From the IMG/VR virus record IMGVR_UViG_3300031555_002573, positions 44,572 to 108,571 of that record: DNA of 64,000 nt, one strand, 5' to 3'. The translations under genes were made by a program, and so were the position numbers. The DNA is from a virus. Lineage: Duplodnaviria > Heunggongvirae > Uroviricota > Caudoviricetes. Shown here piece after piece: positions 1,679-54,732 of this stretch; position 1 is the first letter of the stretch; each line of letters starts with the position of its first letter. Under the pieces are notes generated by a model. That model searched no databases and was not told where the DNA came from. It saw only the letters and a program-made list of their open reading frames with translations.

Positions 1679-1696
1679 TAGCGAGGAGGGTTGCTA

Positions 1697-4239: not shown

Positions 4240-5274
4240 CAACAAGAACCAAGACTCTTGAGTGGCTACTCAGGTGATGAAAATATGATAAATGCATACA
4301 AACAAGGTAAAGACCTATATGCCACTATCGCTTCCAAAATTTATCACAACGATTATTGGGATAATATGGAGCATTTACAAGATGGTACAGCAAGTCCTGA
4401 AGGTAAGAAAAGAAGAAGTTCTGTTAAAGGACTACTACTTGGAATCCTTTACGGAATGGGGGCACAATCTATTGCTAATACAATTAAGGGAACGTATGAA
4501 GAGGCACAAAAGATTATCGATGACTTCTATCGAGAGTTTCCTAAGGTAAAAAGATGGATTGATGAGACCAACGAATACGCTAAAGCTTATGGATATGTGG
4601 AGGATATGTGGGGCAGAAGACGAAGATTGCCTGACATACAAATGCCAAAATACATTGTTAGTGTGTATGGAGAAAATAATAATAGTCTTGAGTTTAATCC
4701 CATAATCGGTGCAAAGAATATTGTTAAAAAAGAAAAACATCCAAAAGTGGCACTTTATGAATCTTTGTTGGATAAGGCAAAAACACTTAAGGATGTAAAT
4801 AAGATAAAAAGTGATGCAAAAAGAGATGGTGTAGTTATTCAAGACAATGGTGGATACATAAGTAGAGCAGAGAGACAATGTGTAAACGCTCGTGTCCAAG
4901 GTGGGGCGGCAACAATGTCTAAAAAGGCAATGATAAAAGTTTATCATGATGAGGAGCTTAAAAATCTGGGATTTAGATTGATGCTAGCTGTTCATGATGA
5001 GTTAATCGGAGAGTGTCCACGAGAAAATGCTAATAGGGTGGCGGACAGACTTTGTGAGATTATGAAAGTGTCTGCCCTACCAGAGTGCATTACACCATTC
5101 AAATGCGACCCCACGATAGAAGGTGTTTGGTATGAAACTGATTACTCTGATGTTATTAGAGAAGAGTACCAATCCTACTTGACCACAATGAGTAAAGAGG
5201 AAGCATTCAATAAACTATGTGAGATTCATTGTGAGTGTACTCATTCACAATTGAGAAATTTTATAGATAACTAA
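4240..5274 (+). CDS. polA: DNA polymerase I family, exon 2 (motif A remainder, motifs B and C)
   Basis: LSGDENMINAYKQGKDLYATIASKIY matches Pol I after motif A; RRSSVKGLLLGILYGMG matches motif B; VHDELIGE matches motif C. Confidence 0.75.
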   Translation, partial: QQEPRLLSGYSGDENMINAYKQGKDLYATIASKIYHNDYWDNMEHLQDGTASPEGKKRRSSVKGLLLGILYGMGAQSIANTIKGTYEEAQKIIDDFYREFPKVKRWIDETNEYAKAYGYVEDMWGRRRRLPDIQMPKYIVSVYGENNNSLEFNPIIGAKNIVKKEKHPKVALYESLLDKAKTLKDVNKIKSDAKRDGVVIQDNGGYISRAERQCVNARVQGGAATMSKKAMIKVYHDEELKNLGFRLMLAVHDELIGECPRENANRVADRLCEIMKVSALPECITPFKCDPTIEGVWYETDYSDVIREEYQSYLTTMSKEEAFNKLCEIHCECTHSQLRNFIDN

Positions 5275-5285
5275 AAGGAGACAAA

Positions 5286-6416
5286 ATGGAAAAATTTATT
5301 ATTCGCTCAGAAGACTTGAAAGATGTATGTAGCAAGATTCTAACTGCAGTAGATAGCACCGAGCTATCCCTTGTAACTGAGACCCTTGAACTTATTGCAA
5401 AGGAAGATATTCTTACTGTTGGCGTTACCAATAGGGAGTACTTTGCAGAAGTAAAGTTCCAATTAGAAGATGTTCAGGATTTCCACGCAACAGTTAATGC
5501 TATGTTGTTCTTGAAGTTGGTGTCCCAAATTACAACTGACACCATTACATTAGGTGTGGAGGGCAACTCTCTTATCGTGAAGGGAAATGGTACCTATAAG
5601 TTGCCACTTATTTTTGATGGAGAAGAACTTCTCACCCTTCCTAAAATTGAAATCGAGAACCCTACCGCAACCTTCCCCATTAGTGCTGACACGCTAAACA
5701 GTATTCTACAATATAATAGCAAGGAACTTACAAAGGGCACTATTTCTAGACCAATCCAAAAATTGTATTATATGGATGAACTTGGTGCTATTACCTTTAC
5801 AAGTGGTGCTTGTGTGAACAGTTTCACCTTGCCTCAACCTGTCAAAGTTCTTTTTAATGGTAGACTTGTCAAACTCTTTAAGCTATTCAAAGAGGGCAAT
5901 GTAGAGTTTACTCTTGGTTATGATGCAATCAGTGATGAGATTATTCAAACTAAGGTTAGATTTAGCAATGGAGAAGTTTCTATTACTGCCATACTCTCTT
6001 GTGATGACACACTTGTAAATCAAGTGCCTGTTCAAGGAATCAGGGGTAGAGCAAATAATGAATACCCATACTCTATCAATATTAGTAAGGCGGCATTACT
6101 TCAAACCATTAACAGACTTACTCTATTTAACAACACAGATAATGCTTTTGCCAAACCTTATGGCACCATTGAATTTAAAGATAAGTGTATGGTAGTATAC
6201 GATGCTAAACATGAGAATTGTGAGGAACTCGATTACACCAATGAATCATCTAATGTAGAGGGTGTGTACGAGGCAGTGTTTAATCTATCCGACCTTAAGA
6301 CCACTCTTGATACATGTGTGGAACCTTACCTTTGTATGAGTTTTGGTGATAGCTCAGCGATGGTCATCTCTAGAGGAAATATTAAAAATGTTATTCCAGA
6401 GGTTAAATTAGTTTAA
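5286..6416 (+). CDS. hypothetical protein, possible sliding clamp or processivity factor
   Basis: 376 aa (beta-clamp size) immediately downstream of the polymerase; no motif verifiable by eye. Confidence 0.3.
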   Translation: MEKFIIRSEDLKDVCSKILTAVDSTELSLVTETLELIAKEDILTVGVTNREYFAEVKFQLEDVQDFHATVNAMLFLKLVSQITTDTITLGVEGNSLIVKGNGTYKLPLIFDGEELLTLPKIEIENPTATFPISADTLNSILQYNSKELTKGTISRPIQKLYYMDELGAITFTSGACVNSFTLPQPVKVLFNGRLVKLFKLFKEGNVEFTLGYDAISDEIIQTKVRFSNGEVSITAILSCDDTLVNQVPVQGIRGRANNEYPYSINISKAALLQTINRLTLFNNTDNAFAKPYGTIEFKDKCMVVYDAKHENCEELDYTNESSNVEGVYEAVFNLSDLKTTLDTCVEPYLCMSFGDSSAMVISRGNIKNVIPEVKLV

Positions 6417-6417
6417 T

Positions 6418-7266
6418 ATGATTAATGTAGAATCTATAGCCAATAAATTTAGAAACAGAGAATCAAAAGCTAAAGATATTTTTGACATACGAGAAGTCAG
6501 CAAAGAGATTGCTTATGACTTTATTAGGCAATACCACTATTTGGGTGATGCTAAATTCTTCTCTATGTATAACTATGGGTTATTTATACGGGGGACAAAT
6601 GAGTTGGTGGGGTGTGCCACCTACTCATTGCCCCAAGGCACGGAAGCATTGAAGGGATGGTTTGGTTTAGAATGTAATGACATTAGCGTTATGGAGTTAA
6701 CCAGACTATGTATGTTGCCAACTTTGAATGGTACAAACGCTACCTCATATCTTTTAAGCAATTCCATAAAAATGCTCAAGAATCATAAGGTCAGAGCGGT
6801 AATAACTTTGGCAGATGCGAGTAGGCATGTAGGTTCAATTTATCAAGTGTGTAACTTTAAATATTATGGATTGGCGAAAACAGCCAAGGATTTTTATAGA
6901 GATGATGGGGCTGTGAATCCAAGAGGAAAAACAGGCTCGATGATGGGAGTATATCTTCCAAGAACTAGGAAACATAGATATGCATACATACTAGATAAGA
7001 CACTTAAGTGTTTATATGAAGAAGAGGTTAGACCCACAACAGATGAAACACACACAACTTTGTGTTGTGATAGCGAGTTTGTAGTATATGACAATAGATA
7101 TGATAAATGGTATACATGTCCAAAATGTTGCACCCATATGATTGAGATTAACTCACAACAAGTTGATATGGTGATGAGTTCTGCCAATAAAAAAGAGTGT
7201 GTGGAGCAACTAATAAGAGAGATTGCACCAAAGCAACAATTGATGGAAGAAGTCTCGTTGTTTTGA
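6418..7266 (+). CDS. hypothetical protein (HYLG...ELTRL...ASRHVGSIYQVCNF core plus C-terminal CC..CPKCC zinc ribbon), possibly an acyltransferase-fold DNA-modification protein
   Basis: Motif pattern reminiscent of a GNAT/Mom-like acyltransferase fold; lies directly upstream of a DNA methyltransferase. Weak call. Confidence 0.3.
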   Translation: MINVESIANKFRNRESKAKDIFDIREVSKEIAYDFIRQYHYLGDAKFFSMYNYGLFIRGTNELVGCATYSLPQGTEALKGWFGLECNDISVMELTRLCMLPTLNGTNATSYLLSNSIKMLKNHKVRAVITLADASRHVGSIYQVCNFKYYGLAKTAKDFYRDDGAVNPRGKTGSMMGVYLPRTRKHRYAYILDKTLKCLYEEEVRPTTDETHTTLCCDSEFVVYDNRYDKWYTCPKCCTHMIEINSQQVDMVMSSANKKECVEQLIREIAPKQQLMEEVSLF

Positions 7267-36047: not shown

Positions 36048-36081
36048 ATAGTTGACTTTCTTTCTAAGAAGTAGTATAATT
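36048..36081 (+). promoter_or_regulatory. conserved extended promoter
   Basis: taatagTTGACTttc..gtagTATAAT. Confidence 0.6.
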
Positions 36082-36596: not shown

Positions 36597-37073
36597 ATGA
36601 CCCTTGTAGAAAAAAGACAATTAAGACACCCGAATACTCATACTTTTATGTATTATAATGCTAATCCTAAAAATAAGATAACTACGGACTGTGTTATCAG
36701 AGCGTTATGTACAGGGATGAGAAAAGAATACAATGAAGTAGTTTTAGAACTTGCTAAAATGCAATGTGAGACTGGGTACGATGATGGCGATGTGTCTCTC
36801 ATTGATAGATACTTGAAGAAAAACGGTTGGACAAGATGTAAACAACCTAGAAAGAAAGACAATAAAAAGTATACAGGGGAAGAGTTTTGTCTTAAGCTTC
36901 AGCATCCCATTTATTGTGAAGAATTGACTTCGTTGCCTAATGAATTCGATTGGCAACATGTGATTGCAAATATTGGAGGACATCACATTGTAGCCATTGT
37001 GGATGGCAAAGTACATGATATATGGAATTCTACACATAAATCTATCGGCACTGTCTGGGTTAAAGAATACTAA
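36597..37073 (+). CDS. putative NlpC/P60 or papain-fold cysteine hydrolase
   Basis: TDCVIRALC (Cys) and HHIVAIVDGKVHD (His-x9-His) resemble NlpC/P60 catalytic segments. Confidence 0.3.
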   Translation: MTLVEKRQLRHPNTHTFMYYNANPKNKITTDCVIRALCTGMRKEYNEVVLELAKMQCETGYDDGDVSLIDRYLKKNGWTRCKQPRKKDNKKYTGEEFCLKLQHPIYCEELTSLPNEFDWQHVIANIGGHHIVAIVDGKVHDIWNSTHKSIGTVWVKEY

Positions 37074-37145
37074 CCCAGACTTTATTTTTATAACATCTTT
37101 ATTGTATATAATTATACAAATATTTTTATAAGGAGACTCACAATA

Positions 37146-39440
37146 ATGAAAGTTATTAAAAGAAACGGTGATAGAGTAGAGTTTGATATTGAAAAAGTTA
37201 GGTCCGCAATAACAATTGCCAACGACAGTGTTGAGCCTGCCTATAAGCGTATTACAAAAACTTTAATAAATCAAATTACAGATGAAATTTCTGATGAATA
37301 TACAAGCAAAAATAGAACAAAGTCAGTTGAGTATATTGCTGACCAAGTAGAAAAGAAACTTGTACAGTACAATGCCTACGATGTTGCGAAAGAATACATT
37401 ACATACAGATATCTACACACAATGGCTCGTAGTAAGTATGATGACTTGATGGATGCTATTAAAGTAAAGTTGGGAGCAGAGGATGTTCAAAATCAAAACG
37501 CTAATGTTGACGAGCATTCATTTGGCGGTCGTGTAGGTGAGATGGCTAACTTAATCAATAAACAATTTGCTCTAGATTATCTGCTATCTGATATGGCAAG
37601 ACAGAATCATCTGAATAATGAGGTTTATATTCATGATTTAGATGCTTACGCGGTGGGTAGTCACAACTGTATGTCTATCCCCTTTGACCACTTACTTGAA
37701 AATGGATTTAACACTCGTCAGACTGATGTAAGACCTGCGGGGTCTGTTAACACAGCTTTTCAACTTGTAGCTGTAATATTCCAACTTCAAAGTTTACAAC
37801 AGTTTGGTGGGGTCAGCGCTACACATATAGACTGGACATTAGCGCCGTATGTGCGATTGAGCTTCTTGAAGCACTACAATATGTTAGTTGATTTCATTCA
37901 ATCTATCCCATTTATAGGTAAACTGTCAAAAGTTAAAAAACGACAAGTTCTTGACCCCAAGTCAGTGTCAATCAATGACGAGAATGTTTACAGTAGAAAA
38001 GGACTATTCAATAAACTAGTACACAGATATGCTAAAAAGCTTACATATAAAGAGGTGTATCAAGGCGCTGAAGGTCTATATCATAATCTGAATACATTAC
38101 AAAGTAGAAGTGGTAACCAACTTCCTTTCACTTCTATTAACTACGGTACTTGTACAACAGAAGAAGGAAGAATGATTACTAAAGCATTGTTAGAGGTAAG
38201 CATCAGGGGTCTTGGAGAAAAGAGAAGAACTTCAATCTTCCCTTGTGGCATCTTTCAATGTGCTAAAGGTGTAAATAGAAAACCTGGTGACCCAAACTAC
38301 GATTTGTTTAAGTTAGCTTTGAAGTCAACATCACAACGATTATACCCTAACTACGCTAATGTAGATTGGTCAGGTAATGCTGGTTATGATGTTAATGACC
38401 CAAGAACTTATTTCTCTACTATGGGATGTCGTACTGCTAATGGTTGGGATGTTAATGGATTGGGTCAACAAAAGGATGGCAGGGGAAATATCTGCCCTGT
38501 GACAATTATCCTACCTACATTAGCTATGCAAGCTAAAGAACGATTTGAACGCATCTGTAGAGGTGAGGAAGAGGAGCCTATTGGTGCAGAGGGATTTGAT
38601 GCTGTTGACTACTTCTTGATGCTACTTGATGTAAAGATACACGAGGCTAAAGATATGTTAATTGAACGCTTCGAGTGGATTTGTTCTCAATCCCCAGAGG
38701 CTGCAAAGTTCATGTACGAGAACAATGTTATGGCAGGGTATATTCCAGAGGAAGGAATTCGTTCTGCTCTCAAGCACGGCACATTGGCTATTGGACAACT
38801 CGGACTTGCTGAAACACTACAGATTCTTATCGGTTGTGACCACACAGAAGAAAGAGGAATGGATGTAGCTAAAAAGATAGAGGAGTTATTCAAGACCCTT
38901 TGTGCGGAGTTTAAGAAAGAGTACAACCTTAACTTCGGTGTCTATTTCACACCGGCTGAAAATCTTTGTAAGACAGCAATGATGAAATTCAAAGAAACGT
39001 ATGGTGTAATTCCGAATGTGTCAGACAAGGATTTCTTTACGAACAGTATGCATGTTCCTGTATGGAAAAATATTTCAATCTTCGACAAGATTGATGTTGA
39101 AGCACAACTAACTGGTTACAGTAGTGCAGGGTGTATCACATATGTAGAACTTGACACTACAACAAAGAATAATCTTGAAGCATTAGAGACCATTGTTAAC
39201 TATGCTATGGATAAAGACATTCCGTATTTTGCTATCAACATTCCGAATGACTTCTGTGTAGATTGTGGATATACAGATGAATTTGAAGATGAGTGTCCTG
39301 AATGTGGAAGCAAGAACATTATGCAGTTAAGACGAGTGACCGGTTATTTGACAGGAAATTATACTACTGCATTTAATTCTGGTAAGATTCAGGAAGTAAG
39401 AATGAGAGTAAAACATGGCTATGAAAAATCGGATTGTTAA
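37146..39440 (+). CDS. nrdD: anaerobic (class III) ribonucleoside-triphosphate reductase NrdD
   Basis: 764 aa; N-terminal ATP-cone-like segment; C-terminal CxxC...CPECGS zinc site and glycyl-radical motif RRVTGYL. Confidence 0.8.
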   Translation: MKVIKRNGDRVEFDIEKVRSAITIANDSVEPAYKRITKTLINQITDEISDEYTSKNRTKSVEYIADQVEKKLVQYNAYDVAKEYITYRYLHTMARSKYDDLMDAIKVKLGAEDVQNQNANVDEHSFGGRVGEMANLINKQFALDYLLSDMARQNHLNNEVYIHDLDAYAVGSHNCMSIPFDHLLENGFNTRQTDVRPAGSVNTAFQLVAVIFQLQSLQQFGGVSATHIDWTLAPYVRLSFLKHYNMLVDFIQSIPFIGKLSKVKKRQVLDPKSVSINDENVYSRKGLFNKLVHRYAKKLTYKEVYQGAEGLYHNLNTLQSRSGNQLPFTSINYGTCTTEEGRMITKALLEVSIRGLGEKRRTSIFPCGIFQCAKGVNRKPGDPNYDLFKLALKSTSQRLYPNYANVDWSGNAGYDVNDPRTYFSTMGCRTANGWDVNGLGQQKDGRGNICPVTIILPTLAMQAKERFERICRGEEEEPIGAEGFDAVDYFLMLLDVKIHEAKDMLIERFEWICSQSPEAAKFMYENNVMAGYIPEEGIRSALKHGTLAIGQLGLAETLQILIGCDHTEERGMDVAKKIEELFKTLCAEFKKEYNLNFGVYFTPAENLCKTAMMKFKETYGVIPNVSDKDFFTNSMHVPVWKNISIFDKIDVEAQLTGYSSAGCITYVELDTTTKNNLEALETIVNYAMDKDIPYFAINIPNDFCVDCGYTDEFEDECPECGSKNIMQLRRVTGYLTGNYTTAFNSGKIQEVRMRVKHGYEKSDC

Positions 39441-40026
39441 TATAACATTAAAATCTATCGGGGCAGGAATGTGTATAGCTTTAGGGCTATACGCATTTCT
39501 ACACTTAGATGCTATACTTGGAAGTTTTGTGTTCTCAGTTGGACTGCTTAGTGTGTTTACACTTAACTTCAACTTATACACAGGACTTGTTCCTTACGCG
39601 TCTATTAAATCTATACCGATGCTCGTTCATGTTGTAGCAGGAAATGCTATTGGATGTCTTATAATGTTGTTGTTACCACATTTGAACTCTGCTGATGTTA
39701 TTGCTGCCAGTAAACTATCTGAACCGTTGTTAGTAGTTTTTGTTGAAGCAATTATGTGCAATATTCTTATCTATATTGCAGTGGAAGCAAACAAACAGCA
39801 TAATACTATAACAGTAATACTATCAGTAGCAACATTTATAATATGTGGGTTTGAACACAGTGTAGCAAACATAGCACTATTCACTGCTGCGAGAATGTTT
39901 TCTATTGATATGTGTGTGCACTTGTTGATTACTATTGCTGGAAATGCCTTCGGCGGAATCCTTATTAGAAAGGTACATTGTGGATTAGATGAGAATAGCA
40001 AAGATAGAAAAAGACTCGTTGAATAA
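39415..40026 (+). CDS. formate/nitrite transporter (FNT) family channel-like membrane protein
   Basis: Multi-TM protein; CGFEHSVANI matches the FNT FEHS(I/V)AN motif; AGNAIGC and AGNAFGG match GNxxG; 203 aa, short for the family. Confidence 0.45.
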   Translation: MAMKNRIVNITLKSIGAGMCIALGLYAFLHLDAILGSFVFSVGLLSVFTLNFNLYTGLVPYASIKSIPMLVHVVAGNAIGCLIMLLLPHLNSADVIAASKLSEPLLVVFVEAIMCNILIYIAVEANKQHNTITVILSVATFIICGFEHSVANIALFTAARMFSIDMCVHLLITIAGNAFGGILIRKVHCGLDENSKDRKRLVE

Positions 40027-40498
40027 TGGCCCAGGCGTTAGACTTGTAGTGTGGTGTCAAGGGTGTTCCATCAGATGTGAAGGTTGCCATAATCCTGAGA
40101 CTTGGGATATGTTTGGTGGCAGAGAGATGACATATGGTGACATTGAGGAAATTATACAATACTTAAATAATGATTATGTGTCAGGTATAACATTTTCAGG
40201 TGGACATCCTCTTGAGCACTACAACATAGACTATGTAGAGTGCCTTGCACAATTAGTAAAAAGGAGATGCCCAGGTAAGACAATATGGTTATACACAGGG
40301 TTAGAGCTTGATTACAAGAAGATAATCAATGACAGCAAGTTGCTAAGTTGTTTAAGTTTTTGTGATGTTGTCGTAGATGGGCCTTATGTTCAATCTCTAC
40401 GAGATACTAGATTGGCTTTTAGAGGCAGTTCAAATCAAAGATTGATTGATATATCGGAAACATTAAAACAGAAAAAGATAATACTATGGAAAGAATAA
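39989..40498 (+). CDS. nrdG: anaerobic ribonucleotide reductase activating protein NrdG (radical SAM)
   Basis: CQGCSIRCEGCHNPETW cluster. Confidence 0.75.
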   Translation: MRIAKIEKDSLNNGPGVRLVVWCQGCSIRCEGCHNPETWDMFGGREMTYGDIEEIIQYLNNDYVSGITFSGGHPLEHYNIDYVECLAQLVKRRCPGKTIWLYTGLELDYKKIINDSKLLSCLSFCDVVVDGPYVQSLRDTRLAFRGSSNQRLIDISETLKQKKIILWKE

Positions 40499-40522
40499 CA
40501 TAAATTGTTATTCTTTCTTTTT
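40488..40522 (+). terminator. rho-independent terminator
   Basis: agaataacataaattgttattct hairpin followed by ttcttttt. Confidence 0.5.
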
Positions 40523-40525
40523 ATT

Positions 40526-40559
40526 ATAGTTGACTTTTGATTATATATACTATATAATA
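40526..40559 (+). promoter_or_regulatory. conserved extended promoter
   Basis: tatagTTGACTttt..TATAAT; first of a tandem pair. Confidence 0.55.
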
Positions 40560-40615: not shown

Positions 40616-40649
40616 TTAGTTGACTTTTAATTCGAATATTATTATAATA
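40616..40649 (+). promoter_or_regulatory. conserved extended promoter
   Basis: aattagTTGACTttt..atTATAAT. Confidence 0.6.
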
Positions 40650-46670: not shown

Positions 46671-46757
46671 GCGGGATTGGTGGAATAGGCAGACACAAGG
46701 GACTTAAAATCCCTCGGTGGTGACATCGTATCGGTTCAAGTCCGATATCCCGCACCA
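46671..46757 (+). tRNA. tRNA-Leu(TAA), CCA encoded
   Basis: GCGGGAT/ATCCCGC acceptor; anticodon arm AGGGA-CTTAAAA-TCCCT; long variable arm; T arm ATCGG-TTCAAGT-CCGAT. Confidence 0.8.
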
Positions 46758-46820
46758 ATGTCGAAGTTTGCTAGAGTTCGTCGCGACTTTAACCCTAAAC
46801 TAGCTCTTCCTTTCGTAAAT

Positions 46821-46897
46821 GCAAGAGTAGTTCAACGGGTAGAATATAGTAGCCTTACAAGCACTATCTATTGGTTCGAATCCAATCTCTTGCACCA
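46821..46897 (+). ncRNA. tRNA-like gene with an aberrant anticodon region (possibly a degenerate tRNA-Val(TAC))
   Basis: Perfect acceptor GCAAGAG/CTCTTGC, D arm and T arm ATTGG-TTCGAAT-CCAAT, CCA encoded. Positions 27-43 do not form a 5-bp stem; an ATAGT/ACTAT stem encloses the 12-nt loop AGCCTTACAAGC. Confidence 0.4.
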
Positions 46898-46919
46898 TAC
46901 ATACTGTTTATTATAATAT

Positions 46920-46994
46920 GGCCCGGTGGTCAAGCGGTTAAGACACCGCCCTTTCACGGCGGTAACACGAGTTCGATTCTCGTCCGGGTCACCA
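46920..46994 (+). tRNA. tRNA-Glu(TTC), CCA encoded
   Basis: GGCCCGGTGGTCAAGCGGTTAAGACACCGCCCTTTCACGGCGG...; near-identical to the Bacillus tRNA-Glu. Confidence 0.85.
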
Positions 46995-47524
46995 TAACAA
47001 TGTAGATGCTAATATAGGCGGCGCGAAAAGGGTATAATGAAAAGTTATGCTAGTGGACATGTCGTTACCACCGAGAAGCGGGAACTGCTCCTATGGCTGT
47101 AGGTTCCTTACATTGTTTAGGCACAATAAGGTGTAATGAGCCTGTTGAAGTTGAAATGATATATACTTCTTCGGTACTGATACTTATCATGTGTTGTGTT
47201 TGAGGTTATTCCTACTACCTGTACCATAAACAGGGGAAGAGTTAGAGTGTAGGAACAGAATATGTAGCGTATATACATAAGGTCGCTAATAGATGATAAG
47301 ATTGTACTAACAACAATCTAATGCGCGATGAGTATCAGATATTAGTGGGCTGTATAAACTATAATAACTGAATAGTATGATACGAGGCGGCTGGCCCAGT
47401 AGGGTACATTGAACTAAATCGTAGTGTTAGTTCCTGTTGATAGGATGCGGTGAGGCGATGGCAGACCAACTTAAACTTTTGAAGTGTCTTGGCCATTAGT
47501 AGTTGATTACGACTAAAGTTATTG

Positions 47525-47598
47525 TAGTAGATATGCGGGATTGGTGTAATGGTAGCACAACAGCCTTCCAAGCTGTTGGTGCCAGTTCAAATCTGGTA
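47525..47598 (+). tRNA. tRNA-Gly(TCC), CCA encoded
   Basis: Anticodon arm ACAGC-CTTCCAA-GCTGT; discriminator U. Confidence 0.8.
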
Positions 47599-47632
47599 TC
47601 TCGCTCCAAGTAATTAAAAAATATTTTTTATA

Positions 47633-47665
47633 ATAGTTGACTTTTTGTAAAAAATATTGTATAAT
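47633..47665 (+). promoter_or_regulatory. conserved extended promoter
   Basis: taatagTTGACTttt..tgTATAAT; upstream of the Met-Gln-Ile-Val tRNA group. Confidence 0.6.
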
Positions 47666-47690
47666 ATATAGTGTTCTAAATAATAGATAA

Positions 47691-47767
47691 GGGCCTTTAG
47701 CTCAGTTGGTTAGAGCCCCCGGCTCATAACCGGTCGGTCGTAGGTTCGAGTCCTACAAGGCCCACCA
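47691..47767 (+). tRNA. tRNA-Met(CAT), elongator type (or Ile2), CCA encoded
   Basis: GGGCCTT/AAGGCCC acceptor (G1-C72); loop CTCATAA. Confidence 0.8.
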
Positions 47768-47773
47768 ACAACA

Positions 47774-47849
47774 TTGAGGTGTAGTCCAACGGTTAGGACA
47801 ATGGACTTTGACTCCATTGATGTAAGTTCGATTCTTGCCACCTCAGCCA
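47774..47849 (+). tRNA. tRNA-Gln(TTG), CCA encoded
   Basis: U1-A72 acceptor TGAGGTG/CACCTCA; anticodon arm ATGGA-CTTTGAC-TCCAT. Confidence 0.8.
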
Positions 47850-47983
47850 ACCCACAGTATAGTTGTGTTTAGAATTATTAATTAGAAGCATATCTGATGG
47901 GAAGGATATGCGGAAGGGTACAAAGAAGACTATACCGGATTTGTAAATTAAGTGTCGTTGCTTACCCCTCAACGAATGTACAT

Positions 47984-48059
47984 GCACCACTAACTCAATG
48001 GTTAGAGTACCTGGCTTATATCCAGTTAGTTCGGGGTTCGAATCCCTGGTGGTGTACCA
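47984..48059 (+). tRNA. tRNA-Ile(TAT), CCA encoded
   Basis: Anticodon loop CTTATAT on a CTGG/CCAG stem; T arm CGGGG-TTCGAAT-CCCTG. Confidence 0.65.
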
Positions 48060-48130
48060 ATACGGAAGCTGAAGATTATGGGTTCAGTAGTGTAGGAGTT
48101 TCGGAAGGTTGACTTCTACAGCGTACATAT

Positions 48131-48207
48131 GCGGGATTAGCTCAGCTGGTTAGAGCACCTGCCTTACAAGCAGGGGGTCATTGGTTCGAGTCCAATATCC
48201 CGCACCA
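48131..48207 (+). tRNA. tRNA-Val(TAC), CCA encoded
   Basis: GCGGGAT...CCTGC-CTTACAA-GCAGG...ATTGG-TTCGAGT-CCAAT. Confidence 0.85.
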
Positions 48208-48470
48208 GTTAAATTAGAATAACTGTAATTGAGGGATGGAAAAGTCTAATAGGGTTGAGGTCTTACAGTGTTGTAAGTGAGTCAGCTTGGAGACTCAAGA
48301 GGATGTGGAGAGGTCAGCGTCTAAGTGACACAAGATTAGCTTATGAACGCGTGGTAAATCTTATTGGATGGGGCACTAGATAGGATGTGCTAAGGAGTAG
48401 GAGTAATACCTATGCCTACTGTGTAAATTATAGTTATCTAGTTTAATTTTTAAAGACAATATATTCATAT

Positions 48471-48553
48471 GCCGATGTGGTGGAATGGCAGACACGCCTG
48501 TCTTAGGAGCAGGTACGAAAGTGTGAAGGTTCGAGTCCTTTCATCGGCACCAA
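48471..48553 (+). tRNA. tRNA-Leu(TAG), CCA encoded
   Basis: Loop CTTAGGA; long variable arm; acceptor GCCGATG/CATCGGC. Confidence 0.8.
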
Positions 48554-49268
48554 TCGGGAATCCCGGGTACTTATTAGTTCATACCGGTAAGTAAGCAATG
48601 TCCCGACCCCAAGAGGTCAAGCCCCTCTGTACAAGGCTATGCGGCACTGTCCGAAACCAAGCAGCGTTTGTAAGTATACTCGTTAAAACTTTCCGCGATT
48701 CAGTTTGTTTGTAGTTGTTACCGCGTTCCAGTGTAAGAGGAATAGATAAAGACTTCAACTGCTCGGATTTGTTTACTCCGATGAAGCATCATAAGGAATC
48801 CAATGATGGTAAACAAAATAAGGTGCCACGAAGCTTTATCAATTTTGATAAGGATTGTTACCCAAAGTACAAGGGAGTGCAGAAGCAGTGGTAAATGGAG
48901 CGGAATGAACAGCCTTATTTTTGAATAATGTGCCGCATTCACCTCAACAATTCGTCGAAAGATGTTGGTGTTACGAAACGGCTAAGTGGAATTTGAGAGA
49001 CAGCATTATTCTGTGGTATCAAGATATCTTGACTAAGTGAGTAACATTCAGTTACGATGCCACAATAGACTTGCCATAGGTCGAGATACCTTCGAGGCTT
49101 GGAGCAACGAAGTAAAATAAAGTCCCCAAGATGTTACTAGGTCAGAACAACTAGTCGCCGCAAGGTAGAGCACAAGTGTTAGAGGTCGATAGGGTATATG
49201 GCACGAGCCCGATTAGGTAATGACAAGGCGTGTAAATGTGCAGAATCGCGAAAAACCTCCGCTTATAT

Positions 49269-49348
49269 CTAGGTGTTGGGGAGTTTGGTCACCCCGCCAG
49301 TTTTGGGAACTGGAGAACTCGTGAGTTCGAATCTCACCACCTAGACCA
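49269..49348 (+). tRNA. tRNA-Pro(TGG), CCA encoded
   Basis: C1-G72 acceptor CTAGGTG/CACCTAG; anticodon arm CCAGT-TTTGGGA-ACTGG. Confidence 0.75.
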
Positions 49349-49614
49349 GCCGGAAGAGATGGTCCTTCATCACCCTCACTTCACAAGGTAGCTCTTGTAT
49401 AAAGAAGAATGATGAACACATTTTTGGTTTGATGTAAGACTTTCTATGAGGTTAAGAAAGAAAGGAAACTCATGTTGCAACAGGGTTGGTAAACCTCTCT
49501 AACGGGAGAAAGCTTCCAATATATGTGCAGATTGATATCGGATTATATCGGGGAGGAGTCATTACCTCTTGGGGACGCCCTTGGCAGGTTCAAGTCCTGC
49601 ACTGTACACTATAT

Positions 49615-49691
49615 GCAGATGTAATTCAGTTGGTTAGAATGCTCGTCTGATACGCGAGTCGTCAATGGTTCAAATCCATTCATCTGCACCA
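49615..49691 (+). tRNA. tRNA-Ile(GAT), CCA encoded
   Basis: Anticodon arm CTCGT-CTGATAC-GCGAG; T arm AATGG-TTCAAAT-CCATT. Confidence 0.8.
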
Positions 49692-49745
49692 TTTAGATGT
49701 AATTTCGTTGAAAGTACTATATATTATTTTTAACGAAATGAGTAT

Positions 49746-49819
49746 GCGGGTATAGTTTAATGGTAAAACCCCTGCCTTCCAAGCAGATGATGACAGTTCG
49801 ATTCTGTTTACTCGCTCCA
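49746..49819 (+). tRNA. tRNA-Gly(TCC), second copy, CCA encoded
   Basis: Loop CTTCCAA; acceptor GCGGGTA/TACTCGC. Confidence 0.75.
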
Positions 49820-49994
49820 ATAAGTGAATAGCGACTTAGTTAACTGTTGCAACAGTTACAAACTGCTTGTGGGATGCGAAACCCCTGAAGTATAACTCAC
49901 TACAATACATGGAGGAAAAAGCCATCAATGGACTTCTGCAAGATGTAAAATACAGGAGGTAAAGGTTGTTATTAGTGAGATGACAATCATATAT

Positions 49995-50079
49995 GGATGA
50001 GTTGCATAGTGGCAATTGCAGCGGACTGTAAATCCGCCGTCTCACGACTACGCTGGTTCGAGTCCAGCCTCATCCACCA
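49995..50079 (+). tRNA. tRNA-Tyr(GTA), CCA encoded
   Basis: Anticodon arm GCGGA-CTGTAAA-TCCGC; long variable arm; T arm GCTGG-TTCGAGT-CCAGC. Confidence 0.85.
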
Positions 50080-50420
50080 GAGGGAAGTTGACTTTGAGTA
50101 TTTCAAACACACCTACTAATAGTGGTAGTAAATACTATACATGGGTTGATTTGCACGGGGCAAATAAGTAGTATAATAAGTACAGAAGTAAAAACTGCGG
50201 AAGAAACCGCCAAGCGGGTCCGAACCGGTGTAGGATGGACGAGTCTCTCTGGAAAGTTATATGAAAAAAGAGCGGTTCGAGTCCGTTATAACCCACCACT
50301 GGTAGAAATGTTAGCAAAAGAAGTCACTACCTCAAACGATTGTATCAACTTAATAAGTGTAGATTATTCGGTATCAAATTGACGGATGTGCGGTTAGCCG
50401 ACCTTAAGGTGTTATATACG

Positions 50421-50520
50421 GATAAGTAAACTGAAATGGGTACAGTAGGGTAATTGCCTGTACGGTTCGATTCCGTCTTGGTCTTGGCAGATATGCTGGT
50501 TCGAGTCCAGTCTTATCCAT
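50421..50520 (+). ncRNA. tRNA-like element (about 100 nt) with a perfect acceptor stem, D arm and two T-arm-like hairpins, no canonical anticodon arm, no encoded CCA
   Basis: GGATAAG...CTTATCC acceptor; D arm ACTG/CAGT; hairpins ACGG-TTCGATT-CCGT and GCTGG-TTCGAGT-CCAGT. Confidence 0.35.
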
Positions 50521-50603
50521 CAAATAAGCCCTGTCCGTGGTAAAAGTCGGTAAAGAGGTGTAATCCCACCAGGCAATTAAATAAGTGAGTTAAAAGATTA
50601 TTT

Positions 50604-50679
50604 GGGGGAGTAGCCTAACGGCTAGGCACACGACTTTTAATCGTGACCACGTAGGGTTCGACTCCCACCTCCCCCACCA
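50604..50679 (+). tRNA. tRNA-Lys(TTT), CCA encoded
   Basis: GGGGGAG/CTCCCCC acceptor; anticodon arm CACGA-CTTTTAA-TCGTG; weak T stem. Confidence 0.75.
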
Positions 50680-50825
50680 GGCGCTGATAGGTAGCAAATA
50701 ATAGCAGCGACAGTGGGCACTACAAAGTGTGTTAACAAACTAATATGTGTGGTAACCGAGTACCTTAAGCGGTGTTAAATATGGAGACATGGGTTAGAGG
50801 ATTAAATCACCTCTCTCCATATATG

Positions 50826-50908
50826 GCTATGTAACTCAATCGGTAGAGTTTTTCGGTACCACTTAACAAAGAGTTGTTAGTTGCAAGTTCGAGTCTTGCC
50901 ATAGCCAA
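50826..50908 (+). ncRNA. tRNA-like element lacking an anticodon arm
   Basis: Acceptor GGCTATG/CATAGCC, D arm ACTC-AATCGGTA-GAGT and T arm GCAAG-TTCGAGT-CTTGC are canonical. The 33 nt between them contain only a TAACAA-AGAG-TTGTTA hairpin. No CCA. Confidence 0.4.
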
Positions 50909-50922
50909 ATATTTTTTATTTA

Positions 50923-50956
50923 ATAGTTGATTTTCAAATTATTTTATTGTATAATG
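50923..50956 (+). promoter_or_regulatory. conserved extended promoter
   Basis: taatagTTGATTttc..tgTATAAT; upstream of tRNA-Arg. Confidence 0.55.
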
Positions 50957-51007
50957 AATATGTCAAGTGAGTTTGAACACATCACTATGCTACCAATATT
51001 AATATAT

Positions 51008-51085
51008 GCGCCCTTAGCTCAGCAGGAACAGAGCATCTGCCTTCTAAGCAGAGGGTCGGGGGTTCGAGTCCCTCAGGGCGTGCCA
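51008..51085 (+). tRNA. tRNA-Arg(TCT), CCA encoded
   Basis: Anticodon arm TCTGC-CTTCTAA-GCAGA. Confidence 0.8.
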
Positions 51086-51291
51086 TTTGCAGGTAGCTCC
51101 TGCTGATTTGAGAGGACAGTATTGCCCTCAATAAGAATGACAATGACATACTACAATATGTTTTAGTGACATAATCAGCTGTAACGATGTGCTACTGTCG
51201 TGTACGAGTATTAGAACAAACGGCACAATGACGGTATGATAGGATAGGCTCCTTGATGGGATGTATTGTATTGTGTAAGTATACTTGATAT

Positions 51292-51384
51292 GGAGGAGTA
51301 CCCAAGTAGGTGAAGGGGCGAGTTTGCTAAACTTGTAGGTCGGAGTAATTCGGCGCGGGAGTTCGAGCCTCCCCTCCTCCGCCA
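51292..51384 (+). tRNA. tRNA-Ser(GCT), CCA encoded
   Basis: 3-bp D stem; loop TTGCTAA; long variable arm; T arm GGGAG-TTCGAGC-CTCCC. Confidence 0.8.
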
Positions 51385-51563
51385 GCTGTCGTACATGGAC
51401 GTCGCGACATTAAATGCAGATAAGCACACAAGAAGGTTGATGTCCCGTTTCAATTGATTTGGGAGTTAAAATCAAAGGTTCTTAGCTATTCCAGAAACTA
51501 AGCGTAAGTGAGAATGAAAGTGCACGCATTGTGTAACATGTAGTACGAGAAGCTACCTTATAC

Positions 51564-51652
51564 GGAGGAGTAGCGAAGTGGTCATAACGCGGCGGTCTTG
51601 AAAACCGTTTGTCCGAAAGGACACGTGGGTTCGAATCCCACCTCCTCCGCCA
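51564..51652 (+). tRNA. tRNA-Ser(TGA), CCA encoded
   Basis: Loop CTTGAAA; variable-arm hairpin GTCCGAAAGGAC; T arm GTGGG-TTCGAAT-CCCAC. Confidence 0.8.
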
Positions 51653-51671
51653 CAAGTAAACACAGATAGAG

Positions 51672-52490
51672 GTGATTTCTATGTATAGAGGATGTATCCC
51701 ATCTAAGGTTGATATCAGAGATTATAAAATTACATATTCTGCTTCTGATGTTCTACCTGCTAAGTTCAGATTAACAAAACTTCCCAAAGTAAAAGACCAG
51801 AAGTGTGTTAATTCTTGTGTAGCTCACGCTACAAGTACTATTTTAGAATACTTTGATTATCAAGATGGAAAAGGTCATGAACTATCCACAAACTTTCTTT
51901 ATGGTGGACAAAAAAAGTTGTGTGGTTACGAGGGACAAGGAATGTATCTTAGGGATGCGTGTGAAATTGCGAAAGATTATGGTGACCCGATAGAATCCTT
52001 GTGTAAGGGAAATGATGAGGTTCCTGATTCTTGGGCAGTAGCAGAAGAAGCACTTGATAATCAAGAGGCGTTGGACAACGCTAAATTTTTCAAAATAAAA
52101 TCTTATTATAGATGTGATAACATAGGTGCCATCAAGAAAGCCGTTCATAAATATGGTCCTGTTCTTGTTTGTATAAAATGGTATAATGATTTTTCAGTTG
52201 ATAGTACAGGAGTAATTCACAGTACACAAACAGGAGACTACGGATATCATGCCGTGATTATTTATGGATGGAATGACAAAGGATTTTACATTCAAAACTC
52301 TTGGGGTAGAAACTGGGGAAAGAATGGCAGAGCAATTCTTCCATATGAAATTCCAGTTGAAGAGGGAAGAGTATTGATTGATGATTCTATTGACATTGAT
52401 AAAAAAGATGTTGTTGTTCCAAAAAGAAACTCTTTGTTAGACATCTTTTGCAAAATTGCCAACTGGATTATTAATTTATTTAAAAAATAA
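51672..52490 (+). CDS. papain-like C1 family cysteine peptidase
   Basis: QKCVNSCVAHAT (Gln/Cys), GYHAVIIYGW (His) and NSWGRNWGKNG (Asn-Ser-Trp-Gly) in canonical order; GGAGGTG RBS. Confidence 0.55.
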   Translation: MISMYRGCIPSKVDIRDYKITYSASDVLPAKFRLTKLPKVKDQKCVNSCVAHATSTILEYFDYQDGKGHELSTNFLYGGQKKLCGYEGQGMYLRDACEIAKDYGDPIESLCKGNDEVPDSWAVAEEALDNQEALDNAKFFKIKSYYRCDNIGAIKKAVHKYGPVLVCIKWYNDFSVDSTGVIHSTQTGDYGYHAVIIYGWNDKGFYIQNSWGRNWGKNGRAILPYEIPVEEGRVLIDDSIDIDKKDVVVPKRNSLLDIFCKIANWIINLFKK

Positions 52491-52498
52491 TTTTTATA

Positions 52499-52532
52499 AT
52501 AGTTGATTTTTTAGTTTTTTTATTGTATAATA
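52499..52532 (+). promoter_or_regulatory. conserved extended promoter
   Basis: taatagTTGATTttt..tgTATAAT; upstream of tRNA-Thr and tRNA-Ala. Confidence 0.55.
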
Positions 52533-52608
52533 ATATATGGTGCTTAAAGGTAAGATAAGACATATGTGCTTATGAAGCGTTTTGACCATAACTCGAAACG
52601 AATCACAT

Positions 52609-52684
52609 GCTGGATTAGCTCAGTTGGTAGAGCAACGCACTTGTAATGCGTAGGTCGTCAGTTCGAGTCTGACATCCAGCTCCA
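52609..52684 (+). tRNA. tRNA-Thr(TGT), CCA encoded
   Basis: Anticodon arm ACGCA-CTTGTAA-TGCGT. Confidence 0.85.
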
Positions 52685-52687
52685 TAT

Positions 52688-52763
52688 GGGCCCGTAACTC
52701 AGCTGGGAGAGTGCCACCCTTGCAAGGTGGAAGTCGTGAGTTCGAATCTCATCGGGTCCACCA
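52688..52763 (+). tRNA. tRNA-Ala(TGC), CCA encoded
   Basis: Anticodon arm CCACC-CTTGCAA-GGTGG. Confidence 0.85.
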
Positions 52764-53548
52764 TGTTGTACCTTGAAAGATGAATACATACTAACTCAGT
52801 GCTAAACAACGAATACGCTTTCGTTGCTGAGAAAGGTTGAATGTGCTGGGAACACACGAAGACGGATACGTTGGATAGTTCGCCGGACTCTAATTCGTGA
52901 GGGTTAGAGGTAAGAGGTTGATAGCCCAAACACAAGACCTTGTACTAGAGTTATTCCCAAATAAGGGCAGAATGTGTATCGTGGGAACAATAGAAAGATT
53001 GAGTGAACAGCTCTTTCCGAATCCAAGTTAGGGTTTAGCCGGTGACTGTATCAAACCTTGGAAATACCAACAATCCCATTGGTCGTGAAGCATAGAAATA
53101 TGTGTATAAGATATGCATGTCATCTCCAAGTAGCCGAAGACCTTGACAAACTGATAAATTATCTACTTGAGATAGTAAATAATTTTCTGAACAGACGGTG
53201 AAAGGTACAGGTAACCAGACCTGTGGTAGCTCGTGTGGAAAGCGGCGGATATCTAATCCGTGCGGCTAACTCCTCGTGGCAAGAAGTTAGAGGTCGCTCC
53301 TCGAAGCTCAGACTTGTCATCTACATAGCTTAATATATTTGAGAATAATTGTAGCAACCCGAAGGGGTAGTAGATGTATTTGTCTTTCAGGGTACAATTT
53401 ACAATACATAGACCTGTTGGTTATGCTTACTATAAGAGTAGTTCAGCTCATTACTTGATGAAATTATAAGTAAGAAACACAGTAGATGCTAGCTCTATTT
53501 TCTTCGGAAGCAGGTCATTGGCCAGGGGATGCGTCCTTTGGCTTATAT

Positions 53549-53622
53549 CGCAGTGGTGGAGCAATGGTAGCTCATCGGGCTCATAATCCGAAGACGAGGT
53601 TCGAATCCTACGACTGCACCCA
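53549..53622 (+). tRNA. initiator-like tRNA-Met(CAT) with irregular acceptor and T stems, CCA encoded
   Basis: TGGAGCAATGGTAGCTCATCGGGCTCATAATCCGA closely matches the Bacillus tRNA-fMet core. C1 x A72 mismatch; only 3 bp in the T stem. Confidence 0.5.
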
Positions 53623-53771
53623 GCTTTTTAGGTTTATACACATTGTTTACAGTTAAGCATATCAAACTACAAACAAGTGGGTGTATTTACTAGTTTTCTA
53701 CCATAAGATGTAAACTAGTCGGTGGTTATGAAGTACCTGTGGAATACCGTCATAGAAAAACTTCATTATAT

Positions 53772-53859
53772 ATCCGAATGGTGTAAGGTAGCATATCACA
53801 GAGTGCTCTAAAAGAGACGAGATTGTGAGGATGAGGTTCGAGTCCTCTTTCGGGTACCA
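53772..53859 (+). ncRNA. tRNA-like element with acceptor, D and T arms and CCA but no anticodon arm
   Basis: ATCCGAA/TTCGGGT acceptor; D arm TGGTGTAAGGTAGCAT; T arm TGAGG-TTCGAGT-CCTCT; ACCA 3' end. No 5-bp stem plus 7-nt loop anywhere in the 37-nt central region. Confidence 0.35.
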
Positions 53860-54097
53860 AACTTCTTTGGTATAGTATAATGCGTCTTATCTATGCAATC
53901 CAAGGCTATGATAAGCGACCTATAACAGAAGACAAATTGATGCATCAATCGTTTCACCAAGGTGTGAGCGTGTCAACATTCCAAGAGTAAGAACTTTGGT
54001 TGAGGAATGAGAAGTTTATTTATATAAAGAATGAACAGTTAGCAACGCTTGAGGTAACCTTATAAAAACTCAGCCCTGCTACCATATGGCTCCATAG

Positions 54098-54174
54098 TAC
54101 AGTTGGTCAGTACGCTAGCCTGTCACGCTAGAGGTCGCGGGTTCGAACCCCGCTGGAGTCGCCAATCTTCCATA
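54098..54174 (+). tRNA. tRNA-Asp(GTC), CCA encoded
   Basis: Anticodon arm CTAGC-CTGTCAC-GCTAG; discriminator G. Confidence 0.85.
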
Positions 54175-54199
54175 ACTAATTTCTATAATTTTCTATTTA

Positions 54200-54233
54200 A
54201 TAGTTGAAATAATTTACAATATGTAGTATAATA
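54200..54233 (+). promoter_or_regulatory. conserved extended promoter (TTGAAA -35)
   Basis: taatagTTGAAAtaa..gtagTATAAT. Confidence 0.5.
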
Positions 54234-54262
54234 AATACGAAGTAAAAACAAGGAGAGTACTT

Positions 54263-54571
54263 ATGGAAACTACAAATCATTGGAATAGTAGAAATGATAG
54301 ACTCGCGTTCATTCAGAAAGAAATTGGAATTGGTAAGCCTGTTAAAACATTTAAGTGGGACAAGGGGCATCCTAATGGTCCAGAGCTACATACTATAACT
54401 GATACTGGAATTATTATCATTAGAAATGCTCTAACCAATAAACTTGTAACTACTTTAATTGCAAGGCCCGGACAAATAAAAAGATACTATGACAAACTAA
54501 AGACTGAAGTTCCGGAATTCATAATGAAACTTGCTTATGAACACGAGCAAAAAGGTTATAATTACATATAA
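54263..54571 (+). CDS. hypothetical protein
   Basis: AAGGAGAG RBS; downstream of the promoter at 54204. Confidence 0.5.
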   Translation: METTNHWNSRNDRLAFIQKEIGIGKPVKTFKWDKGHPNGPELHTITDTGIIIIRNALTNKLVTTLIARPGQIKRYYDKLKTEVPEFIMKLAYEHEQKGYNYI

Positions 54572-54584
54572 AATTATTATTAAA

Positions 54585-54618
54585 ATAGTTGACAAACAAC
54601 TCTATTAAGAGTATAATA
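54585..54618 (+). promoter_or_regulatory. conserved extended promoter (TTGACA, 17 nt, TATAAT)
   Basis: aaatagTTGACAaac..gagTATAAT; upstream of tRNA-Asn. Confidence 0.6.
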
Positions 54619-54655
54619 AATAGCATAGTAAACAAACTGCTATGCTATTAGATAT

Positions 54656-54732
54656 TCCCCTGTAGCTCAGCTGGTGGTAGCATCTGACTGTTAATCAGAG
54701 GGTCGCTGGTTCAAGTCCGGCCGGGGGAGCCA
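54656..54732 (+). tRNA. tRNA-Asn(GTT), CCA encoded
   Basis: Anticodon arm TCTGA-CTGTTAA-TCAGA; preceded by a 10-bp leader hairpin. Confidence 0.8.

Follow-up and report, generated by a model that had tools for sequence, protein, structure and literature searches.

Why should a phage carry a gene for a membrane channel between the two genes of its anaerobic ribonucleotide reductase (RNR)? The question is raised by a 64,000-nucleotide stretch of viral DNA (Duplodnaviria; Heunggongvirae; Uroviricota; Caudoviricetes; positions 44,572 to 108,571 of IMG/VR record IMGVR_UViG_3300031555_002573), hereafter the window, in which an open reading frame (ORF) for a small protein from the family of formate/nitrite transporters (FNT) stands between nrdD and nrdG:

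37146-39440, + strand: nrdD, 764 aa, class III anaerobic glycyl-radical ribonucleoside-triphosphate reductase (Pfam, NCBIfam).
39415-40026, + strand: ORF of the mini FNT-family channel, 203 aa (Pfam PF01226).
39989-40498, + strand: nrdG, 169 aa, radical-SAM activase that puts the glycyl radical on NrdD.

According to the ORF list, nrdD and the FNT ORF overlap by 26 nt (39415-39440) and the FNT ORF and nrdG by 38 nt (39989-40026), which are exactly the overlaps given in the original prediction made from this DNA. The FNT start at 39415 is backed by a 75% identical relative (L253), where both the upstream sequence GAGAGTAAAACATG and the full-length frame are the same. Our answer, which we consider probable though well short of certain, is that the co-expressed FNT is a formate channel feeding reductant to the phage class III RNR. 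This reading is strengthened by the following observations, detailed below: (i) the NrdD is of the formate type, (ii) the link with nrdDG is recurrent and occurs in several gene orders and (iii) bacterial relatives of the channel lie in operons with ZTP riboswitches and formate-tetrahydrofolate (THF) ligase.

The motifs from which FNT membership had been proposed are present in the ORF: FEHSVAN at residues 146-152 (preceded by G145) and two GNxxG motifs, GNAIG at 76-80 and GNAFG at 176-180. Comparison with the Pfam hidden Markov model (HMM) PF01226 (Form_Nir_trans) bears the assignment out, the score of 67.4 bits (E = 1.6e-18; profile positions 15-233 of 240) being nearly double the gathering cut-off of 34.6 bits. 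A protein search gave 29 short FNTs of 185-235 aa, and a profile of the ORF with 29 homologues matched FNT channels exclusively in the PDB (Vibrio FocA, E = 4e-23; Clostridioides difficile hydrosulfide channel HSC, E = 7e-21; LCIA, E = 6e-21; NirC, E = 8.5e-19; PfFNT, E = 3e-11). An AlphaFold2 monomer model based on the same alignment (pLDDT 92.8, pTM 0.87) has the topology that had been expected, namely six predicted transmembrane (TM) helices of which TM2 and TM5 are each split into half-helices, the aquaporin-like hallmark of the family (TM1, 2-29; TM2a, 33-49; TM2b, 55-61; TM3, 64-86; a short helix bearing K100, 91-101; TM4, 105-127; TM5a, 131-144; TM5b, 149-158; TM6, 164-189). When this model was compared to the PDB with Foldseek, the top matches were all FNT channels (TMq 0.76-0.86 to HSC, FocA and NirC); the best was HSC (E = 8e-8, TMq 0.82, 23% identity), slightly ahead of FocA. 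Neither outcome named beforehand as refuting the assignment, a missing FNT HMM match or an incompatible topology, was thus obtained. PHROGs holds no family for the protein, and BFVD contains a single 'formate/nitrite transporter' of 191 aa, which an uncultured siphovirus encodes.

Residue numbers of the pore were transferred by HMMER alignment to Salmonella/E. coli FocA (F75 to F40, L79 to L44, L89 to L54, T91 to T56, K156 to K100, N172 to N116, V175 to I119, F202 to F141, E208 to E147, H209 to H148 and N213 to N152). The phage pore has the central histidine H148 with its partner threonine T56, the constrictions F40/F141 and L44/L54/I119, and the vestibule pair K100/E147; F40, L54, T56, F141 and H148 are invariant in all 152 unique short FNTs collected. 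The protein presumably assembles as a pentamer. It is under purifying selection, with a ratio of nonsynonymous to synonymous substitution rates (dN/dS) of 0.098 at dS 0.39 in comparison to the 92% identical L255, dual-coded ends excluded, and of 0.09-0.26 in comparison to more distant relatives. The tail (193-203) is disordered in the model and lies within the last ~12 codons (38 nt) that are dual-coded with nrdG. Its basic sequence NSKDRKRLVE was considered as an NrdD-docking element and rejected, as it occurs only in the sub-clade with the 38-nt nrdG overlap and is modelled with low confidence; the simplest view is that it arises from the dual coding with the N-terminus of NrdG.

The partner enzyme is probably a formate-dependent reductase of the NrdD1 type, to judge from its homology to the NrdDs of Prevotella copri (PcNrdD), Streptococcus thermophilus (StNrdD) and phage T4. 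The window protein matches Pfam NRDD (6.9e-146) and has an N-terminal ATP-cone, and its activase matches NCBIfam TIGR02491 (168 bits, cut-off 126; 1.1e-49), Pfam Fer4_12 and Radical_SAM, and phrog_626. In the PDB the NrdD matches PcNrdD (8p23, 1.8e-115), StNrdD (9d3x) and the T4 enzyme (1h78), and is remote from Thermotoga maritima NrdD (1e-9), a representative of the NrdD2 subtype in which the third active-site cysteine is present (PMC4493059). The formate requirement of PcNrdD has been demonstrated experimentally, and there Asn435 replaces the third cysteine (PMC11226230); the S. thermophilus enzyme is an NrdD1, of the formate type (PMC12662201). The corresponding residues of the window NrdD are C175, the finger-loop M426-G-C428, N448, the glycyl-radical G733 and the Zn-site cysteines 704/707/717/720, Asn448 being aligned with Asn435 of P. 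copri and Asn311 of T4, the site of the third cysteine in thioredoxin-type enzymes. C175, C428 and N448 were found in all 43 scorable FNT-linked NrdDs, across three deeply different NrdD lineages, a result that is weakly discriminating given that the comparison did not include phage thioredoxin-type NrdDs. Among isolates, the nearest NrdD is that of the Thomasclavelia ramosa phages TR-TP1/TP2, with 64% identity.

Several nrdD genes beside FNTs are interrupted and span 3.1-4.3 kb against 2.2 kb (L019, 693-4977; L022, 1147-4436; L023, 1910-4984). At two loci (L037 and L059) the break in the alignment falls precisely on the catalytic finger-loop cysteine (STMG|C), and the annotation of the Thomasclavelia phages PQ571309 and PQ571310 gives nrdD in two parts separated by an HNH endonuclease. 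These interrupted phage genes likely carry an insertion, either intein or intron, at the active site.

We then come to the distribution of the channel. In the phage-like contigs examined for closer short FNTs, the order was always nrdD-FNT-nrdG. A pattern scan of IMG/VR gave 79 FNT loci, and from 185,579 species genomes the best 80 of at least 484 bacterial loci were taken. Linkage was defined as nrdD or nrdG within 5 kb of the FNT in tblastn searches with the window NrdD and NrdG, and counts were taken from the tblastn coordinates; ORF-based gene calls missed the FNT or chose antisense ORFs at some loci. By this definition 42 of the 79 viral loci are linked versus 2 of the 80 bacterial ones. 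The viral arrangements are nrdD-nrdG-FNT (19/79), nrdD-FNT-nrdG (15/79) and, with F, D and G for the three genes, F-D-G, F-D, F-G, G-F, D-F and similar (8/79). Clustering of the viral FNTs at 60% identity leaves 53 clusters, 29 of them linked to nrdD/G. The comparison of synteny that had been proposed with the original prediction thus finds the link in many phage lineages and in several orders.

Identity-based clustering shows the phage FNTs to be polyphyletic and interleaved with bacterial ones (for L018-21 the nearest bacterial relative is at 60%), which implies repeated capture. FNT and NrdD similarities are also incongruent, since FNTs 40-45% identical to that of the window adjoin NrdDs that are only 28-30% identical to its NrdD, and NrdDs 65-71% identical go with FNTs 31-40% identical in another gene order. 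Among the 80 nearest IMG/VR relatives of the window NrdD (63-68% identity), nrdD and nrdG are directly adjacent with no FNT nearby in 70, the order is nrdD-nrdG-FNT in 6, nrdD is alone in 4 and nrdD-FNT-nrdG does not occur, so that the FNT gene was aptly described as inserted between its neighbours. In relatives with the same D-F-G order, the gene is intact down to 53% identity. The FNT is therefore a sporadic accessory, captured from bacteria many times and repeatedly placed against nrdDG, and the combination of repeated capture with repeated placement is a signature of selection for linkage. The window FNT itself is a phage auxiliary metabolic gene (AMG): it lies in a phage genome, its bacterial homologues are interleaved with phage ones and it is under purifying selection.

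The arrangement was not seen among deposited phages: of 50,697 records, 2,306 have an NrdD match and 6 an FNT match, no record has FNT and nrdD adjacent, a megablast search of these phages with the operon gave no match, and the fetched flanks of the other FNT matches (MT839063, MT838410, Enterococcus phage records and Phass-1) contain neither nrdD nor nrdG. A dUTPase gene lies a few genes from the FNT/nrdDG block in 22 viral FNT loci (cluster c3; for example L052, 4083-4613, and L006, 2704-3150), and its recurrence is consistent with a nucleotide-metabolism module. We also considered nrdDG-FNT as a normal bacterial arrangement and rejected this, as among the 80 bacterial loci it is found only in L150, with a remnant in L155. 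The former (3062-5543; uncultured Tenericutes UMGS1402) looks cellular; its nrdD is fragmented into two ORFs that cover Pfam NRDD positions 244-532 only, and after it come an intact nrdG and then a short FNT. The syntenic L155 retains an nrdG remnant alone. The two loci may stem from a bacterial nrdDG-FNT cluster in decay, or an alternative genetic code may produce this picture.

What surrounds the bacterial short FNTs is heterogeneous, with purine genes recurring. Of the 80 bacterial loci, 15 have a same-strand ZMP/ZTP riboswitch upstream, identified by a motif search and confirmed with Rfam RF01750 (46-69 bits, cut-off 39), and at four of them the aptamer directly precedes the FNT (L142, 1174-1252; L166, 1010-1097; L132, 4850-4932; L107, 4773-4851). 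The operons annotated with Pfam read as follows:

L166: ZTP riboswitch, FNT, serine hydroxymethyltransferase, formate-THF ligase.
L102: ZTP riboswitch, IMPDH, FNT, IMP cyclohydrolase, adenylosuccinate lyase (PurB), AICAR transformylase (PurH), formate-THF ligase.
L157: ZTP riboswitch, PurE, a gene without Pfam assignment, PurM, FNT.

Formate-THF ligase is thus part of two of the three annotated operons. According to PMC2864571, the regulon of the ZTP riboswitch (pfl motif) turns on genes that restore 10-formyl-THF, including fhs, whose product uses free formate; in its main text on the motif we found no discussion of ZTP control of short FNTs. In gut and rumen Clostridia the riboswitches control short FNT genes either singly or within purine/formyl-THF operons. 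A channel in this regulon would most simply be a formate importer, and ZTP-controlled short FNTs beside formate-THF ligase suggest that the bacterial response to formyl-THF stress has an arm for formate uptake. All but one of the 15 ZTP-linked FNTs fall in one cluster, and this cluster includes a phage FNT of F-D-G arrangement (L055). Both recurrent partners of the short-FNT clade, the Fhs/purine operons of bacteria and the NrdD of phages, are consumers of formate. As a side observation, L157, a contig of a Clostridia metagenome-assembled genome (MAG), also has a match to the Gut-1 RNA (RF01706) at 7130-7210 (57 bits, cut-off 50).

How the phage would profit can be outlined as follows. The FNT would be transcribed as the middle gene of nrdD-FNT-nrdG, so that reductase, activase and channel are produced together. 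During anaerobic infection the channel would insert into the host membrane and let formate/formic acid equilibrate across it. One formate is oxidised by NrdD per deoxynucleoside triphosphate (dNTP) made (Mulliez et al. 1995, as cited in PMC11226230); the phage enzyme, converting it to CO2, would turn the cytoplasm into a formate sink, with a net flux inward. The channel, probably without gating of the FocA style, would in this way secure reductant for phage DNA synthesis from a formate-rich gut or rumen, independently of the host's pyruvate formate-lyase or FocA. As a rough estimate, for a genome of 150-200 kb, as on related contigs, and a burst of 50-100, about 1.5-4 x 10^7 dNTPs would be needed, corresponding in a cell of 1 fL to formate at tens of millimolar, far above the typical pool; formate supply could plausibly limit replication, especially if the host's pyruvate formate-lyase is absent or shut down.

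A wider reading, which we offer tentatively and would not expect to hold in full, is that reductant as well as nucleotide supply is a bottleneck for large phages in strict anaerobes, that gut and rumen phages have repeatedly captured a minimal ungated formate channel for this reason and that the class III RNR runs on the extracellular formate of the community. Phage DNA replication would then depend on interspecies formate cross-feeding. In a stronger version, suggested by the docking of PflB to FocA, the mini-FNT may dock NrdD at the membrane and form a formate-to-RNR metabolon.

Several observations weigh against a formate channel serving the RNR. Channels for formate, nitrite, hydrosulfide and lactate have the pore residues in common, and neither sequence nor fold can therefore name the substrate. 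Attempts to read it from the pore residues or from the nearest solved structure were abandoned, as the FNT subfamilies have the same residues and score alike. The equivalog models for FocA (TIGR04060, 37.5 bits, cut-off 290.1) and NirC (NF008595, 24.3 bits, cut-off 293) are not reached, which places the phage protein in the FNT family but outside its characterised subfamilies; it is no FocA orthologue, being also without the N-terminal gating helix. The 'fnt' subfamily model TIGR00790 gives 42 bits (cut-off 232). Identity between the window FNT and the ZTP-linked bacterial proteins is low, at 29-37% (tblastn). As to its distribution, the occurrence of the FNT in only 6 of the 80 closest NrdD relatives implies that most such phages can dispense with the channel, and 37 of the 79 viral loci have neither nrdD nor nrdG within 5 kb. 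The inward direction of the flux is an assumption, FNTs being bidirectional and FocA mainly an exporter of formate at neutral pH. As to the enzyme, to the limited discrimination of the NrdD residue count must be added Cys450 (GRGNIC; ~38493-38495), two residues past Asn448, which is present in all 80 closest IMG/VR relatives and absent in the P. copri, S. thermophilus and T4 enzymes. Part of the distance argument can be qualified: one locus classified as FNT alone (L033) is on the same contig as L235 (IMGVR_UViG_3300045988_140174), FNT and nrdD being 60 kb apart, and in Phass-1 (OQ749652) the two are 27 kb apart (89 kb and 60-62 kb), so that the 37 unlinked viral loci are not all without a class III RNR.

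Because the pore residues do not discriminate among FNT substrates, formate as the substrate has to be deduced from context, namely the ZTP-riboswitch/Fhs surroundings of the bacterial relatives and the partnership with NrdD. The same ambiguity feeds the best of the rival explanations, a working FNT channel whose substrate is not formate but a different small anion (monovalent) or a weak acid, such as nitrite, hydrosulfide, acetate, lactate or bicarbonate, and that neighbours nrdDG as part of a shared accessory block for anaerobic infection. HSC, LCIA and NirC score about as well as FocA in the Foldseek and profile searches, the FocA and NirC equivalog HMMs are far under threshold, the sole viral FNT discussed earlier was read as a nitrite transporter (PMC8115048), and dUTPase and other nucleotide genes also cluster nearby. 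We nevertheless consider this explanation improbable: nitrite- and sulfite-reductase genes are absent beside all loci examined, the sole recurrent adjacent enzymes are NrdD/NrdG in phages and purine/one-carbon enzymes including formate-THF ligase in bacteria, both of which use formate, and adjacency that arose repeatedly and in several orders would be difficult to account for if there were no functional tie to NrdD/NrdG in particular.

Somewhat less probable again is an outward channel or pH/weak-acid valve, which would relieve a build-up of formate or acid or re-route host fermentation. E. coli FocA does export formate in fermentation and re-imports it only at low pH (PMC8914244); the phage FNT, which is without the N-terminal helix involved in gating by PflB (PMC5600444), may moreover be constitutively open. 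Yet export of the co-substrate of an enzyme encoded on both sides of the channel gene would be counter-productive, and the bacterial relatives are turned on by ZTP, which signals a lack of formyl-THF, a state that calls for a gain of formate. Co-option for a non-metabolic role (membrane depolarisation, superinfection exclusion or lysis timing), to which small multi-TM proteins of phages are often put and with which the 37 viral loci away from nrdDG would agree, is very unlikely in view of pore residues that are invariant over the 152 short FNTs, unnecessary as they would be for a holin-like role, and of neighbour clusters that include no associated lysis gene. Least credible is a recently captured host gene hitch-hiking without any phage role, an idea that the sporadic occurrence (6 of the 80 closest NrdD relatives) invites and that a dN/dS of ~0.1, intact genes with conserved D-F-G order down to 53% identity and 29 linked viral clusters contradict. 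A formate channel supplying the class III RNR remains the reading that we prefer.

The boundaries of the transcription unit and the signals around it were located as follows:

37053-37080, + strand: terminator-like hairpin with a T-run (10-bp stem, tail TTTATTTTTA), ending the upstream gene; 5' boundary of nrdD-FNT-nrdG.
37103-37112, + strand: putative promoter -10 element (TG..TATAAT) before nrdD, from reading of the sequence.
37130-37135, + strand: strong putative ribosome-binding site AAGGAG before nrdD, likewise from reading of the sequence.
40488-40518, + strand: terminator-like hairpin and T-run at the stop codon of nrdG, forming the 3' boundary of the three-gene unit.
40530-40558 and 40620-40648, + strand: two near-consensus sigma-70 promoters of the next gene, after the nrdG terminator.

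The three genes look like a single transcription unit, because they overlap, have no convincing internal terminator and are bounded at both ends by terminator-like hairpins; a terminator-like match within the FNT gene (39935-39956) has a poor T-tail and was put down to chance. The original prediction had called the FNT a co-translated operon member. The operon stands, on the strength of the overlaps and the flanking hairpins; for co-translation the overlap is the one indication, from which the FNT is probably translationally coupled within the operon. The putative -10 element of nrdD was not flagged by a consensus promoter scan, as a good -35 element is absent. The two promoters after nrdG are identical (TTGACT-17-TATAAT, 11/12 matches), lie 90 nt apart within an AT-rich spacer downstream of the nrdG terminator, and a third identical copy is found at 36052-36080. 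Directly upstream of nrdD, a 158-aa protein of phrog_3754 is encoded (36597-37073), which has homologues in the same place in L002 and L016; an ORF of equal size (158 aa) also precedes nrdD in L253, matched on size only.

The window derives from a large phage and has nearly all of its genes on one strand, and its PHROG matches include a DNA polymerase, a sliding clamp, a UvsX-like recombinase, an SbcCD-like nuclease and an RNA ligase. The polymerase is seemingly split into two ORFs (1691-3154 and 4258-5274, corresponding to phrog_17 profile positions 627-1014 and 1024-1257), and an intron, an intein or the insertion of a homing endonuclease could account for the gap of ~1.1 kb. On the + strand, 23 tRNA genes for most amino acids form an array (46671-54732) that is typical for large phages, and the local GC content there rises to 0.41-0.43. 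Related loci are on IMG/VR viral contigs of 60-290 kb, and the bacterial contigs with related FNTs are almost all human-gut or ruminant MAGs; the host is presumably a low-GC gut or rumen member of the Bacillota.

FNT, NrdD and NrdG are known parts; what is new is the recurrent phage operon architecture, and literature searches found no paper in which an FNT is linked to nrdDG, be it of phages or of cells. Phages of anaerobes commonly encode a class III RNR, and where its stoichiometric reductant comes from has so far not been raised as a question. If our reading is true, the channel defines a new class of AMG that supplies the electron donor for DNA-precursor synthesis, and phage productivity in gut and rumen is tied to formate, which in these ecosystems is a key carrier of electrons between species. 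The ~200-aa proteins, a minimal FNT scaffold lacking the gating helix of FocA, should in addition be useful for work on the gating mechanism of these channels.

Among known systems, the class III RNR operons of phage T4 (nrdD-nrdG) and other phages have homologous NrdD and NrdG and the formate-type chemistry, but no transporter. FocA of E. coli, Salmonella and Vibrio (PDB 3KCU, 3Q7K and 3KLY; focA-pflB operon) has the same fold (TMq 0.75-0.86), and its central histidine, Omega-loop threonine, two hydrophobic constrictions and Lys/Glu pair are all found in the phage protein; its gene, too, adjoins one for a glycyl-radical enzyme with formate in its reaction. The differences are that FocA has 280-285 aa whereas the phage FNT has 203 aa and trimmed loops, that FocA residues 1-29 have no counterpart in the phage protein (TM1 starts at residue 2 and the alignment begins at FocA 29-30) and that the phage partner NrdD consumes formate whereas PflB produces it. 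The missing region corresponds to the N-terminal cytoplasmic helix through which PflB/TdcE bind and gate the channel (PMC5600444). The hydrosulfide channel HSC/FNT3 of C. difficile (PDB 3TDO and mutants), the best Foldseek match and itself from a Firmicute, differs in its size of 268 aa. HSC is linked to the asrABC sulfite reductase; no genes of this type are near any FNT locus examined. The short FNTs of gut and rumen Clostridia (L102, L166, L157 and others) belong to the same clade, with a median of ~210 aa, identical pore residues and a formate-consuming context; they differ in being cellular and riboswitch-controlled, with Fhs and purine enzymes as partners instead of NrdD. The nearest viral precedent is a cyanophage scaffold with focA beside nirA, interpreted as an AMG for nitrite (Gazitua et al. 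2021, PMC8115048). Here as there, a viral FNT lies beside an enzyme using the anion to be transported and is taken for an AMG; but the cyanophage gene, with 86% identity to Prochlorococcus, is a near-copy of the host gene on a single scaffold of a marine T4-like phage, whereas the mini-FNT is divergent, tied to class III RNR and found in gut/rumen-type phages of at least 29 lineages.

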